Counted from the first letter of the whole stretch, positions 19,043-62,112 are shown. The stretch is 62,144 bases of DNA, filler included, from a bacterium (GCA_041690355.1; 4 parts of 4 records of this genome joined end to end with filler, not necessarily neighbours in it), one strand, 5' to 3'. Made by a program: numbers and translations. The notes: generated by a model from the sequence alone, not told the origin.

Positions 19043-19142
19043 NNNNNNNNNNNNNNNNNNNNNNNNNNNNNNNNNNNNNNNNNNNNTTAATTAATTAANN
19101 NNNNNNNNNNNNNNNNNNNNNNNNNNNNNNNNNNNNNNNNNN
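19043..19142. other. Artificial contig linker
   Basis: N-run + TTAATTAATTAA (stops in all frames) + N-run. Confidence 0.98.
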
Positions 19143-48634: not shown

Positions 48635-48734
48635 NNNNNNNNNNNNNNNNNNNNNNNNNNNNNNNNNNNNNNNNNNNNTTAATTAATTAANNNNNNNNNN
48701 NNNNNNNNNNNNNNNNNNNNNNNNNNNNNNNNNN
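48635..48734. other. Artificial contig linker
   Basis: N-run + TTAATTAATTAA + N-run. Confidence 0.98.
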
Positions 48735-58292: not shown

Positions 58293-58392
58293 NNNNNNNN
58301 NNNNNNNNNNNNNNNNNNNNNNNNNNNNNNNNNNNNTTAATTAATTAANNNNNNNNNNNNNNNNNNNNNNNNNNNNNNNNNNNNNNNNNNNN
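58293..58392. other. Artificial contig linker
   Basis: N-run + TTAATTAATTAA + N-run. Confidence 0.98.
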
Positions 58393-58680
58393 GTACAGTC
58401 CACGAAACCCGAGGGCTGATATGTCGAAATGCCCCTGCTCGTGATGCAGCAGGTCGTCCGTCTGGCTGTCCCTCACCGCCCAGCTCTCGGCGCGGCTGAC
58501 GGAGATGGTCATCTGCACGCTGGGGATGGTCCAGTCACCGTCACGGGATTCAACCACGGCCCACGTCAACGGCCGGGCCCGCACCGTGATCTTGGCGTCC
58601 TCCCCCTCGCCTGGGGGCCTGCTGCGTACCGTCCCGAAGTTGCTCCACCCAACTGCGCGATTGAAGCCTGTGATTGCCAT
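58393..58680 (-). CDS. DUF922 family putative Zn-dependent protease (truncated by contig end)
   Basis: W-x-x-F N-terminus; SW...LLHHEQGHFDI HExxH motif. Confidence 0.75.
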
Positions 58681-58878: not shown

Positions 58879-58973
58879 GCTGCGGAAGAAGGTGCCGTTG
58901 CCACCGGACCTGTTGGCGCAGAACCAATAGCACAATAGATAGCTGCATAAAAATGCGTTAGAAGTCGTTTTTG
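58879..58973 (+). repeat. Left 95-bp arm of long palindrome interrupted by the IS
   Basis: Ungapped reverse-complement match to 61826-61920, 83/95 identical by manual count. Confidence 0.92.
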
Positions 58974-58993
58974 ACCCTCAAAACGGAAAGCGT

Positions 58994-59803
58994 TTAGCTT
59001 GGGGCGTAGCCAGGGCTCCTGGCGTGCCGTATGAACCTGTCGATGTAGTAGCGTCGGAGCCTCTTTCTGACAACCAGCGCCGCCATGCCCTCCTCGGGGA
59101 CGGGTAGCTGACCTTGGTTCAATTCCGTGATGGTCCTGAATGATCTGGGGATCGATTCCGCCAGCTTGTCGACCCAGTCGATGTGCCCTACGGCGAGGGT
59201 GTCGGCCAGTTCCCCGATCCTCCCCTGCGCGTTCCGTCGCAGACACTGCTCGGTTCGGTCGATGTACCACTGCGCGAACGTTTCCGCGTCCATCCCCATG
59301 CCCAGTGCCTCGGACACCGCCTCCGGCCTGACTGCCCGATAGCGCTTGCGGATGCCGACCAGTTCGCTCCAGCCGCCCTGCTTCCACTGCGCGGGATGCT
59401 GGATTCGCCCCTCGGCGACGAGGTGCAGATCGATGGCGAGCATGATGCCGAGAAGGGCGGGGCCGTTCTGCACGAGCGTCACTGCGTGCCGGTCGCGCCA
59501 CACGTGCCCCGGAGCGAGCCCGGAGGGCCTGAAATCATGCACGGAACCGCTCTGCAGCGTTCGCATCAATGCCGAAGTGCGCCGCGGATCGGCGGGCGTG
59601 AATAGCGCGTACAGACCGGTCGGGGCCACAAGGTAGTCGAGCCCGGTCGCCTTCTCCCCGGTGACGGTTTCCACGAGCCGCCGTCGGTACGTTTTGCGCC
59701 GACTGGCGAAGCGTAGCGCGCGGACGTGCGGCAGGCACCGGTGCGACACCAGCAGCGCCGCGTCGGGAAAGGCGTTCTTCGTTCGTCTCGTTCCTTTTGC
59801 CAT
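58994..59803 (-). CDS. RAYT / Y1 HUH transposase homologue lacking catalytic residues
   Basis: Scaffold motifs SHRC, GHVWRDRH, IDL, HPAQW, LAVG..DWV retained. HUH (NHxH) reads PTGLYAL; catalytic Y of YIDLN reads AIDLH; stop codon lies within IRL. Confidence 0.75.
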   Translation of the reverse strand: MAKGTRRTKNAFPDAALLVSHRCLPHVRALRFASRRKTYRRRLVETVTGEKATGLDYLVAPTGLYALFTPADPRRTSALMRTLQSGSVHDFRPSGLAPGHVWRDRHAVTLVQNGPALLGIMLAIDLHLVAEGRIQHPAQWKQGGWSELVGIRKRYRAVRPEAVSEALGMGMDAETFAQWYIDRTEQCLRRNAQGRIGELADTLAVGHIDWVDKLAESIPRSFRTITELNQGQLPVPEEGMAALVVRKRLRRYYIDRFIRHARSPGYAPS

Positions 59804-59820
59804 CTTCATCCTTTCATGCC

Positions 59821-59854
59821 TTGCATTGTCACGTACTCTAGTTATACTACTAGA
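59821..59854 (+). promoter_or_regulatory. Sigma70 promoter of the transposase operon with palindrome enclosing -10
   Basis: TTGCAT-N16-TATACT; TCTAGT-TATACT-ACTAGA. Confidence 0.6.
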
Positions 59855-59884
59855 TAACATGGTCCCATAGCATGGAGGTGTCAA

Positions 59885-60082
59885 ATGGGCTTCCGAACGA
59901 AAATCCAGCTGATCAACCGCAAGAGCAGCCAGCAATGGTACGTGAACTTCCCCTCGGCGTGTGCGCAGATGATGGAGTTCCGCAAGGGGGAGGTGATGGA
60001 GTGGGTTCTGACCGGGCGCGGCGACCTGCTTCTGCGCCGGGTGGAGCGGGAGGAGGTGGGCGACGATGTCGACGGTCGGTAG
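59885..60082 (+). CDS. Small AbrB/MazE-like DNA-binding protein
   Basis: GGAGG RBS; TKIQLINRKSSQQWYVNFPSACAQMMEFRKGEVMEW swapped-hairpin pattern; overlaps the transposase start. Confidence 0.7.
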   Translation: MGFRTKIQLINRKSSQQWYVNFPSACAQMMEFRKGEVMEWVLTGRGDLLLRRVEREEVGDDVDGR

Positions 60083-61661
60083 GGAGGATCTCGACCAGAC
60101 GATGGAGCGAAGCCGCCTTCTCGGCCGGGAGGCGGCGGAGCACCGGCGGATCGCGGTCGCCTACGAGAAATGCCCCGCCGAGCCGCCTCCGTCCGTCGAG
60201 GCGGCGTTGCGGGCGCGTCGGGCCTGCGACGACGCGCAACGCGCGCAGTGCGGCCTGCTGCGGGAACTGGTGGGCACTCTCGCCGATCATGCCGCCGAAC
60301 AGTCGGGGAAACTGACGGCGATGGAGGAGCAGAACCGCAGGCTCTCGGCCGACTGCGAACGTCTTCGCCTGGAGTTGCGCAGGCAGTTGGGCGTACAGCC
60401 GAAACGCATGGGATCGGCCGGGGAACCGGACGCCGGTGAATCGAAGGCGGGCGGCGAGGAGAACGGGGAAACGAATGGCCCGAAGAGGCGGGGTGCGCCG
60501 AAGGGACACCGGGGCGCGTCCAGGGGCGTTCCAGAACGGGTGGACCGCACCGAGGAGATCCCCCCGCCCGGAGTCTGCCCGTGCGGATGCGCGGCCATCG
60601 AACCAATGGACGAGTTCGACCTCAAGTGGACCGAGGACATTCCGCCCGTGTGCCGCGTCGTCACACTCTCGAAGTACCGGCGCGGACGCTGTCCCGACTG
60701 CGGAACCGTGCTGCGTCACGACGAGGCCGTGCACGGGCCGCCCGTGGTCACCGGGCCGAACCTGGCGGTCATGCTGACGACGCTTCGGCACATGGGCATG
60801 ACATACCGCCGACTCGCCTCCCTCTGCACCGACTGCCTCGCCATCCCCCTCACCGCCTCCGGCGTGCTGGGCGTCGTCAACGGCGTCTGCGACCGACTGC
60901 GACCGGTCGCCGACGAGATCGCATCGGCTTTGCGCGAGCAGGAGGTGATCGGAGCCGACGAGACGGGCTGGAGAATCGAGCGGGAGAGCGGCTACGTGTG
61001 GTGCTTCTGCAACAAGCTTCTCGCCTACTTCCATCCCGACCGCAGTCGAGCCACCGCCGTCCCGGAGGGCGTGCTCGGAAAGGAGTTCCGGGGAACGGTC
61101 ACCTGCGACTTCTACGGTGCGTACAACTTCCTCGAGAACACGCAGCGATGCTGGGTCCATCTGCTCAGGGACATCGAGAAGGAGCGGCTGATCCTGCCGG
61201 GAAGCAAGACGCTACGCAAGTTCGAGGACGAAGCGTGGGCCGTCTACAAGGAGGGCAAGCGTGTCCAGGCCATGGAGGACGGACCCGGGAAACGCCGCGA
61301 CGCGGGGAAGTTCATCCGGCGCGTTCGCCGCCTGGGGAACATGAAAGTGCCCAAGGGCAAGGCCACCACGCTGGCCAAGCGGGTCCGGAACTACGCCGAC
61401 GAACTGGTCGCCTTCATCGACAACCCGCAAGTCGAACCGCACAACAACAGAACCGAGCGACAGGTTCGACCCATTGTCGTCAACCGCAAAAACTCTTACG
61501 GAAGCGACACCGCGGGCGGCGCCAAGCGCATGTGCGATCTGGCCAGCGTCCTGGAGACCTGCAAGCTGAACGGACTGCGCATCGGCAGATGGCTCGCGGA
61601 TCTGCTCGCCGCCCCTCAGGACACTCCCCCGAGTCCCTTCGAGAAGCCCGCCAAAAGCTGA
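60066..61661 (+). CDS. tnpC: IS66 family DDE transposase
   Basis: Coiled coil, KRRGAPKGHRG, CPCGC...CPDCG zinc finger, ADETGW, CDFYGAY, QRCWVHLLR, NNRTERQVR. Confidence 0.93.
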   Translation: MSTVGREDLDQTMERSRLLGREAAEHRRIAVAYEKCPAEPPPSVEAALRARRACDDAQRAQCGLLRELVGTLADHAAEQSGKLTAMEEQNRRLSADCERLRLELRRQLGVQPKRMGSAGEPDAGESKAGGEENGETNGPKRRGAPKGHRGASRGVPERVDRTEEIPPPGVCPCGCAAIEPMDEFDLKWTEDIPPVCRVVTLSKYRRGRCPDCGTVLRHDEAVHGPPVVTGPNLAVMLTTLRHMGMTYRRLASLCTDCLAIPLTASGVLGVVNGVCDRLRPVADEIASALREQEVIGADETGWRIERESGYVWCFCNKLLAYFHPDRSRATAVPEGVLGKEFRGTVTCDFYGAYNFLENTQRCWVHLLRDIEKERLILPGSKTLRKFEDEAWAVYKEGKRVQAMEDGPGKRRDAGKFIRRVRRLGNMKVPKGKATTLAKRVRNYADELVAFIDNPQVEPHNNRTERQVRPIVVNRKNSYGSDTAGGAKRMCDLASVLETCKLNGLRIGRWLADLLAAPQDTPPSPFEKPAKS

Positions 61662-61825
61662 CCCGCCCGAGAATCCCGATCCCACCCGCAACCCGACTGG
61701 CGACCCACCAACTCCGGGGTGCTGTGCCGTGCCCGCGATGCCCCGCGACGTAGCCCTTTCACGCCACGTCGCGCCCGCGTCCGAACGGCTCCCCCCTGCC
61801 TGGAGGCCCCAAGCTAAACGGTTTC

Positions 61826-61920
61826 CAAAAACGACCTGTAACACATTTTTATAAAGCTGTTTATTGTGCTACAGCTTCTGCTCCAACAGGTCCGGTGGCA
61901 ACGGCACCTTGTTCCGCAGC
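61826..61920 (-). repeat. Right 95-bp arm of long palindrome
   Basis: See 58879-58973. Confidence 0.92.
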
Positions 61921-62029
61921 GGGGCCGTCCAAAATAGCCGAAATGGTATATTCAAAACTCGGCGGTCAGAATCGATTACGGGCAGCAGGAAGGAGTCCGG
62001 GGAAGGATGGACGGAATGGAGGGGTCTCT

Positions 62030-62112
62030 GCCCCAAAGGGGCAAAGGTAGGTAGCCGCGGGTGTAAACCCGTGGAAAACGATGTACCTCCTCCATGCGCC
62101 CCAAAGGGTCGC
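62030..62112. repeat. REP-like palindromes
   Basis: GCCCCAAAGGGGC, GTAG-CCGCGGGT-GTAA-ACCCGTGG, GCCCCAAAGGGTC. Confidence 0.55.

Follow-up and report, generated by a model that had tools for sequence, protein, structure and literature searches.

Simple insertion sequences (IS) are thought to pick their targets through the transposase alone, and dedicated target selectors are known mainly from large Tn7-like elements. A locus at 58879-61920 of the bacterial DNA analysed here (GCA_041690355.1; 62,144 nucleotides in all, four records joined with filler, hereafter the window) raises the question of whether a simple element may carry a selector of its own. There, an element of the IS66 family holds between its terminal inverted repeats a passenger gene whose product resembles the RAYT transposases, HUH/Y1 enzymes that recognise repetitive extragenic palindromic (REP) hairpins, and the element interrupts the tip of a palindrome of about 200 nt. 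Does the passenger belong to the element, is it kept after the loss of its catalytic residues, and could it have a part in choosing the site?

Here we show that 58986-61825 is a member of a real, conserved and apparently undescribed subfamily or variant of IS66-family insertion sequences. The element transposes as a whole three-gene unit, with exact 8-bp duplications in its relatives. Its passenger has a RAYT-like HUH/Y1 fold that has lost both catalytic signatures and is kept under purifying selection like the transposase TnpC.

The limits of the element are fixed by the termini of related copies and by one public contig. A repeat search over the whole stretch returned inner inverted repeats at 58985-59005 and 61806-61826 (21 nt, 95 % complementary) and, with the relatives' ends and the public contig, bears out the 20-bp terminal repeats proposed in a preliminary description of this locus (Table 1). 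The window termini read GAAAGCGTTTAGCT... and GAAACCGTTTAGCT..., those of the related loci L004-L006 read GTAA(C/G)CGTTAAGCT, and the terminus G(A/T)AA(C/G)CGTT(A/T)AGCT is common to loci L001-L006; the IS66 terminal consensus consists of repeats of about 20 nt with a GTAAGCG-like start. The list of open reading frames (ORFs) agrees with the earlier reading of three genes between the repeats, the stop codon of the passenger falling within the left one. TnpC is an intact IS66 transposase, as claimed: it matches PF03050 at 9.9e-38 and the equivalog model NF033517 at 2.7e-72, with 244 bits against a cut-off of 180 and over model positions 2-385 of 387. The passenger and the 65-aa ORF have no Pfam or NCBIfam match at E <= 1 for the window's own proteins, and their identities therefore rest on relatives and fold. 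TnpA and TnpB helpers are not among the element's genes, the other two ORFs being RAYT-like and MazE-like by their relatives.

The three genes form a set that recurs in other genomes. A metagenome scan with the passenger found three loci, all with the same layout, in which a divergent ORF of 71-72 aa accompanies a passenger of about 267 aa (about 44 % identity) and, where the contig permits, a TnpC of 546-556 aa. Four close homologues are present in a 90%-clustered database, one of them 99 % identical and located on a 2886-nt contig. A scan of reference genomes with TnpC returned 38 loci, four of them at 46-54 % identity, from Kiritimatiellia, uncultured bacterium, Victivallales and Lentisphaeria metagenome-assembled genomes (MAGs). 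In three of these four (L004-L006) the passenger lies upstream and divergent, and the fourth is a 1017-nt contig that holds the small ORF and a partial TnpC only. The co-occurrence of passenger and TnpC inside shared inverted repeats, which the preliminary description proposed to test, thus holds for close relatives. TnpC homologues lacking the passenger, which it had named as a possible refutation, do exist, but only at a distance: the close ones with enough flank carry it, and the 34 loci with <= 33 % identity (from Planctomycetota, Chloroflexia and others) are all without it within 4 kb. Nor is the passenger a decaying fragment, since every close relative whose flanks are long enough keeps it together with TnpC between common repeats. 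The element had also been described as a single copy, which is true of the window, where each of the three genes occurs once, but the element itself belongs to a multi-locus family.

Among 401 sampled genomes of the phylum of the Victivallales MAG (G003), 21 have a homologue of the small ORF, and the close homologues among them (L196, L197, L210 and the decayed L198-L200) adjoin TnpC and/or the passenger. The passenger alignment found no relative on reference-genome contigs, TnpC found nothing among viral contigs, and tblastn with the passenger found nothing among plasmids. At L002 (584-627), two non-identical copies of the three-gene set stand head to tail with a 16-nt spacer (AAAAGGGGACCGTTTT), which could be a tandem insertion or a dimer of the IS. 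G003 and G004 also contain miniature derivatives (150-190 bp) with IS66-type inverted repeats, which look like non-autonomous miniature inverted-repeat transposable elements.

That the set moves as a unit follows from two kinds of evidence. Exact 8-bp duplications flank the element's ends in L004 (GATATTCT), L006 (CGCAACGG) and L131 (GGAAACCG), the last a 186-bp deletion derivative. Contigs of four public sequencing runs were in addition mapped onto the region. In run X1, a 2886-nt contig matches 58991-61825 with 3 of 2835 letters different and then continues with 51 unlike letters starting TTAAAAACGGTTTTTAAGG; in run X3, a contig matches from 58986 and is preceded by 156 other letters. These other flanks identify the inner repeats as the mobile boundaries and indicate that the passenger moves with the element. 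Together, the relatives' exact duplications and the near-identical copy with another flank show that the element moves as a unit that includes the passenger.

What kind of protein is the passenger? Searching 1.84 billion representative proteins gave 313 relatives at E <= 1e-3, 64 of them at <= 1e-10, and 38 sequences, mostly full-length, were aligned. At the HUH column the window reads APTGLYALF (G-L-Y) against TSNHVHLL (H-V-H) in distant relatives, and at the column of the catalytic tyrosine it reads AIDLHLVAEG, with alanine for tyrosine, against YIDLNMVRAG. PF01797 is matched by 27 of the 38 aligned relatives and not, at E <= 1, by the window passenger. Against solved structures, the passenger profile reached ISDra2 TnpA at 1.4e-4. 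An AlphaFold (AF2) model based on the 38-sequence alignment has a predicted local distance difference test score of 91.5 and a predicted template modelling (TM) score of 0.90. Foldseek gives a single match to it at E <= 0.001, the structure 4er8 of the E. coli RAYT in complex with a REP hairpin (TM 0.67 on the target, 151 columns, E 1.2e-4); ISDra2, IS608 and IS200 transposases come next. Beyond the HUH domain lie about 120 C-terminal residues that are common to active and inactive members. The loss of the motifs in the alignment, the PF01797 relatives and the best fold match all support the earlier identification of a nuclease-dead RAYT-like protein. Because it fails the HUH and tyrosine tests, the passenger would work at most like the DNA-binding half of a RAYT and is not a functional member of that family.

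Both motifs are absent from seven of seven IS66-linked passengers and kept in five of five close stand-alone homologues of the same MAGs (L073-L077, with no TnpC nearby). A maximum-likelihood tree of 52 rows places the 24 rows that lack the motifs in a single clade (support 99/94), nested within the active rows. IS66 context is established for seven of these 24 rows, which fall on both sides of the clade's deep split. The ratio of non-synonymous to synonymous substitution rates, which the preliminary description had suggested computing for the passenger, was obtained from two close pairs, more distant pairs being saturated: it is 0.22-0.23 for the passenger, indicating purifying selection, 0.23-0.24 for TnpC and 0.05-0.12 for the small gene. 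A complex prediction of TnpC with the passenger scored 0.01 against a mark of 0.32 and is neutral on binding.

The small ORF is the best-conserved gene of the set, 70-81 % identical in L001-L007. PF04014 (MazE/SpoVT-AbrB) is found at E <= 1 in 14 of 20 homologues (best 4e-5) and not in the window's own copy, in keeping with the AbrB-like character first assigned to it, and its model (predicted local distance difference test score 84) has the order strand-strand-helix-strand-strand. The PF04014 matches, the layout and the neighbours fit a putative DNA-binding regulator of mobile-element genes, which would most likely repress transposase expression. Distant homologues (43-55 % identity) stand directly upstream of DDE_5/DDE_Tnp_1 transposases (L205 4393-5996, L207 3103-4709) and of a Rep3 plasmid initiator (L204 4439-6271). 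The family suggests a regulator shared by several kinds of mobile element.

We now turn to the site. The two arms of the palindrome are 95 nt long and 87 % complementary, with a GC content of 0.50-0.56 against roughly 0.65-0.75 around them. When the left side is compared with the reverse complement of the right, the outer arm runs continuously into the inner repeat, and the sole gap is the 12 left bases 58974-58985. The right arm begins precisely across from the left arm's final base, and the 12 extra bases consist of a short loop and a near-copy of the right arm's first eight. Such a geometry fits the entry of the element into a single intact palindrome. Without the element and 8 bases, the folding energy of the site, taken with 130 nt per side, is -91.4 kcal/mol (100 shuffles: -30.3 +/- 3.1; z -19.7), and the arms pair over nearly their whole length. 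The earlier statement that removal restores a palindrome with 95-bp arms thus stands as far as the fold is concerned, but the duplication is imperfect, as detailed below. Nor did the palindrome arise as an artefact of fold-back assembly, since 12 of the 95 arm positions differ and the outer flanks bear no relation to each other. A 32-base piece of the arm occurs once in the whole stretch at <= 3 mismatches, and Rfam gave nothing for the arms in the region, L001, L005 or L006. Matches of 17-21 nt at L089 and L090 fall within coding-like DNA and were discounted as chance.

Arm sequences recur beside related copies of the element and at fixed distances from it. At L005 the last 26 nt before the IS match those of the window at the same distance (z 5.4). 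The window's 27-nt box, GGTGCCGTTGCCACCGGACCTGTTGGC, and its counterpart in L006 are both 83-57 nt away from the right end (z 6.4-6.6). A full left arm is likewise present in L006 (z 4.2), 72 nt from the IS, and the exact 8-bp duplication of L006 stands between IS and arm. A profile made from the window and L006 arms found a further full-length arm in a Lentisphaeria MAG (L094, E 7.4e-4 in 0.9 Mb), which ends ...GAAAACG and directly adjoins a miniature derivative of about 150 nt with IS66-type ends. At L197 the two flanks form an imperfect inverted pair of about 95 nt (z 4.9).

A similar kind of sequence is found next to active relatives of the passenger. L073 and L074 are single active genes between inverted repeats of 19 nt (100 %) and 23 nt (87 %), 925 nt apart. 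The L075 gene is overlapped at its 3' end by a terminal hairpin with a 19-bp stem (TAGGCTTAGAGCCGTTTTT, 8 nt, AAAAACGGCTCTAAGCGTA), whose stem and loop are closely like the window tip (TTAGAAGTCGTTTTTG, ACCCT, CAAAACG). Over about 90 nt, the 3' flanks of L075 and L074 match the left arm of the window with z 6.7 and 6.5, scores that 0 of 200 shuffles reached and that are drawn from 144 pairwise comparisons; the MAG with these two loci (G002) also holds the IS copy L005. The tip motif, defined after the fact, has three occurrences in 0.9 Mb, one each in the window, L006 and L075, and none of 20 shuffled sets contains it. Judged by sequence similarity, the link of the window arms to RAYT-type ends is of moderate strength. 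Because the arms appear to be of the same kind as the ends beside active passenger relatives, the window palindrome would be a REPIN-like doublet of RAYT-unit ends, an identification that the matches carry in part. Two other leads were set aside: a similarity of the arm to the IS interior gave a single match (z 7.7, 20 shuffles, window arm against L004) that was not reproduced elsewhere, and a generic T-run/A-run hairpin pattern occurs at 51 places and is too unspecific.

A separate repeat borders IS66-type ends in the Victivallales MAG. A sequence of about 95 nt starting TTGGGGACGTTGTT abuts eight such ends, of left and right types and of two subfamilies, and reads towards the IS on both kinds of end, with a junction position that varies. 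It was considered as a relative of the window arms and rejected, as a profile of the eight flanks misses them; it is a separate family. In the same MAG, REP-like GC-rich short hairpins (CCCACCGGC-CTCGT-GCCGGTGGG) occur at or near IS66 ends at L125 (G003:C37) and L111 (G003:C117), an anecdotal observation.

How might passenger and palindrome be connected? The captured dead RAYT may still bind the hairpin or end sequence that its active relatives recognise, and, once bound, could bias TnpC-catalysed insertion to the tips of such sequences, acting as a protein target selector. Targeting of this kind would be a preference and not an obligation. Hairpin targeting by the dead RAYT is the best-supported mechanism, and we hold it tentatively, at a little short of an even chance. 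We prefer it because it accounts for three features: the retention of a hairpin-binding fold by every member, the location of several lineages at one and the same point in end sequences of one kind, and the fixed distance of the conserved box. The fuller account, in which a DDE insertion sequence captured and disarmed an HUH transposase and now homes to the REPIN-like end doublets of that transposase's active relatives, parasitising their termini, is possible but somewhat more doubtful than not.

Insertion sites give mixed evidence. Of the six related sites with both flanks, the window is palindromic within 60 nt (z -9.4) and L197 weakly so (z -2.0). The AAAAC/GTTTT junction occurs in 6 of 18 curated ends, of window-like and L004-like lineages. 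As a control we took 15 copies of a passenger-less IS66 from a Planctomycetota MAG: exact 8-bp duplications stand at fixed coordinates in 13 and are off by one base in the other two, their targets are non-palindromic (z -1.5 to +1.8), and the AAAAC/GTTTT junction is present at 0 of 30 ends. On the enrichment of insertion sites in palindromes, which the preliminary description proposed to test, the window is a palindromic site and L197 weakly one, with arm pieces at L005, L006 and L094, but four of the six sites are not palindromic. Its hairpin-targeting proposal fared likewise: the arms do resemble the 3' flank and terminal hairpin of active relatives, and related copies in three other genomes adjoin the same tip at an equal position, but several copies lie in ordinary or coding DNA.

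A number of observations, besides the 144 comparisons behind the flank scores and the after-the-fact definition of the tip motif, weigh against hairpin targeting. The window octamers TCAAAACG (58978-58985) and CAAAAACG (61826-61833) are identical at six of eight positions. The four non-palindromic sites, L006, L004, L131 and L094, have z between -0.6 and +2.9, L131 lying in coding-like DNA and L004 in a decayed copy of the passenger gene. From the Victivallales MAG 84 distinct IS66-type ends were collected, and the AAAAC/GTTTT junction is found at 0 of 10 passenger-side ends of one subfamily and at 0 of 9 ends of another. The profile of IS-adjacent arms did not reach the RAYT flanks in nhmmer at E < 10. 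In the four MAGs searched (G001-G004), neither arms nor box turned up as a repeat, only the known L006 site being found, so that a stock of empty targets was not seen; MAGs under-represent repeats, which limits such arm copy counts. Among the pieces listed for the four sequencing runs, no contig joins across the site and skips the IS. Finally, the junction motif resembles the terminus of the IS itself, and TnpC alone could therefore explain it.

This last point leads to the strongest competitor, which we consider unlikely: target choice would be the work of TnpC alone, through a preference for an A-run/CG sequence that resembles its own terminus, or through insertion beside resident IS ends. 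RAYT-type hairpins would then happen to contain such sequences, and the dead RAYT would have another task, such as regulating transposition, interfering with active RAYTs of the host or binding the DNA of the element itself. The likeness of junctions to the terminus is concrete, as in the L131 duplication (GGAAACCG against GAAACCG) and in the descending stem of the L075 hairpin, CTCTAAGCGTA, which resembles GTAAGCGTT. Copies also adjoin copies, in the L002 tandem with its 16-nt spacer, at L112, where two ends are 8 nt apart, and at L105, where one end lies inside another, and many passenger-carrying copies are in non-hairpin DNA. A choice by TnpC alone, however, gives no reason for a hairpin-binding fold under selection in every member. 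The passenger-less control, with similar termini, shows neither the motif nor palindromic targets, and a box at a fixed distance of 57-83 nt is hard to fit with a local preference.

That the arrangement of arm, IS and arm is an inherited composite is improbable. On this account an IS66 element fused with a RAYT unit made up of arm, gene and arm, and the arms would be the former ends of this unit, passed on through descent or through transfer of the whole locus; arm-less copies would reflect ordinary IS66 transposition. The active relatives L073 and L074, genes between inverted ends, resemble the unit that it supposes. In the window, L005 and L094 the arm meets the IS at an identical base, and L006 keeps the box at an unchanged distance, which common descent also fits. 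The arms occur about once per genome, mostly beside the IS, and contigs of X1, X3 and X6 break off at the palindrome's outer ends, 58884-58888 and 61917. Three results speak against a composite. The 12 extra bases on the left, with their near-copy of the right arm's first eight, are the signature of insertion into an intact palindrome; L006 has its exact duplication between IS and arm; and the depth in X1 is 9.8 over the IS against 0.85-1.7 over the arms. A position due to chance, with more or less random insertion that in the window hit an intergenic hairpin, would suit the one or two palindromic sites among six and an element that is single in the window, but it is very improbable: the insertion falls a few bases at most from the midpoint of a 200-nt palindrome, three other genomes have this tip or box at an unchanged distance (z 5.4-6.6), and the control elements have nothing similar.

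How does the element compare with known systems? Like the TnpC-only members of IS66 (the ISBst12-like group), it has a DDE_Tnp_IS66 transposase with a full-length equivalog match, GTAAGCG-type repeats, 8-bp duplications in its relatives and no TnpA or TnpB; unlike them, it has two extra conserved genes within its repeats, and part of its copies appear to stand at RAYT-type ends. Tn7-like elements use dedicated target selectors, TnsD/TniQ, and include CRISPR-associated transposons. The proposed logic would be analogous, a non-catalytic DNA-recognition module co-opted to steer a DDE transposase, but there is no homology and no ATPase adaptor, the element is far smaller, and targeting here is putative. 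IS1397 and ISKpn1 insert into REP palindromes. The same is reported for ISPpu9 of the IS110 family (PMC8450116, 10.1101/2025.01.17.633520). Our element shares with such elements a place inside extragenic palindromes; they are not known to carry a separate hairpin-binding protein, whereas here a dead HUH protein is the candidate selector and the transposase is of another family.

With RAYT (TnpA-REP) and REPIN systems (PMC3116915, PMC3337134), the element has in common the fold of the passenger, active relatives flanked by hairpin-bearing inverted ends, and a palindrome that looks like an end doublet. It differs in that the passenger is without HUH and tyrosine, lies inside a DDE element and has an extra C-terminal part of about 120 aa, and in that the 95-nt arms were not found as a high-copy family. 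TIRYT are described in PMC6006769 as tyrosine transposases flanked by terminal inverted repeats; L073 and L074, single genes between short inverted repeats, are like them, and the window protein, inactive and IS66-borne, is unlike them. Full-text literature searches, with supplements and ISfinder outside their scope, found no description of an IS66 element with a RAYT-like gene, in agreement with the preliminary description, which knew of no described element with this layout.

If the targeting reading is true, an inactivated hairpin-binding HUH protein in an IS66 lineage would open a new way of selecting targets and be a clear example of a transposase exapted by another element, as well as a compact two-protein system of protein-guided targeting for simple insertion sequences. 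It would link the poorly understood biology of IS66 to the RAYT/REPIN world, and the question can be tested with three small genes and a defined 200-nt DNA. Even if the selector idea fails, there is a new and widespread gene arrangement in Lentisphaerota and Kiritimatiellota genomes, with a dead RAYT that still needs explaining.

Table 1. Coordinates of the element, its insertion site and related features (window positions unless a locus is named)
Feature	Position	Strand	Details and basis
Left arm of palindrome	58879..58973		27-nt box at 58891-58917; tip motif TTAGAAGTCGTTTTTG at 58958-58973
Left-only twelve bases	58974..58985		ACCCTCAAAACG; read as hairpin loop plus left duplication copy TCAAAACG
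Left terminal inverted repeat	58986..59005	+	GAAAGCGTTTAGCTTGGGGC; contains passenger stop codon 58994-58996; repeat search, relatives' termini, X3 contig
Passenger, RAYT-like HUH/Y1-fold protein, 269-271 aa	58994..59809	-	Start 59803 or 59809; ORF list, alignment, model, tree, substitution-rate ratio
Divergent intergenic region between passenger and small gene	59810..59884		AT-richer, GC 0.51-0.56; promoters/operators presumed
MazE/AbrB(SpoVT)-like small protein, 65 aa	59885..60082	+	Overlaps TnpC start by 17 nt; ORF list, relatives, model
IS66-family DDE transposase TnpC, 531 aa, intact	60066..61661	+	PF03050, NF033517
Right terminal inverted repeat	61806..61825	-	Repeat search; X1 contig match ending at 61825
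Right arm of palindrome	61826..61920		First 8 bases = right duplication copy CAAAAACG; box ~61883-61908, minus strand
Miniature derivatives, examples	L096, L127, L108, L131, L152; G004:C1199, C1276; L094 1362-1515		
Stand-alone active RAYT-like genes, ~250 aa, possibly TIRYT-like units	L073 6398-7360; L074 6988-7958; L075 2973-3018		Kiritimatiellia and related MAGs
~95-nt Victivallales repeat	L117, L132, L138, L140, L144, L148, L159, L160; solo L165 1496-1566, L122 1392-1462		G003

The surroundings of the locus add some minor observations. The upstream neighbours are chromosomal, namely Tad-pilus RcpC/CpaB, TadB/C-like proteins, a histidine kinase and TspO. An ORF on the minus strand (58393-58680), directly to the left of the palindrome, has an HHEQGH motif but no Pfam match and runs into a masked stretch. 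Three such masked stretches are present, at 19043-19142, 48635-48734 and 58293-58392, each composed of 44 N, 12 bases and 44 N, the third about 490 nt left of the palindrome. On the other side and outside the arms, an Acido-Lenti-1 RNA motif scores below threshold at 62029-62074 on the minus strand (27.3 bits against a gathering cut-off of 37, E 0.0031). The segment 62025-62144 is highly repeated in public sediment contigs, with a summed depth of up to 291 in X1 and joints that suggest tandem or dispersed copies.

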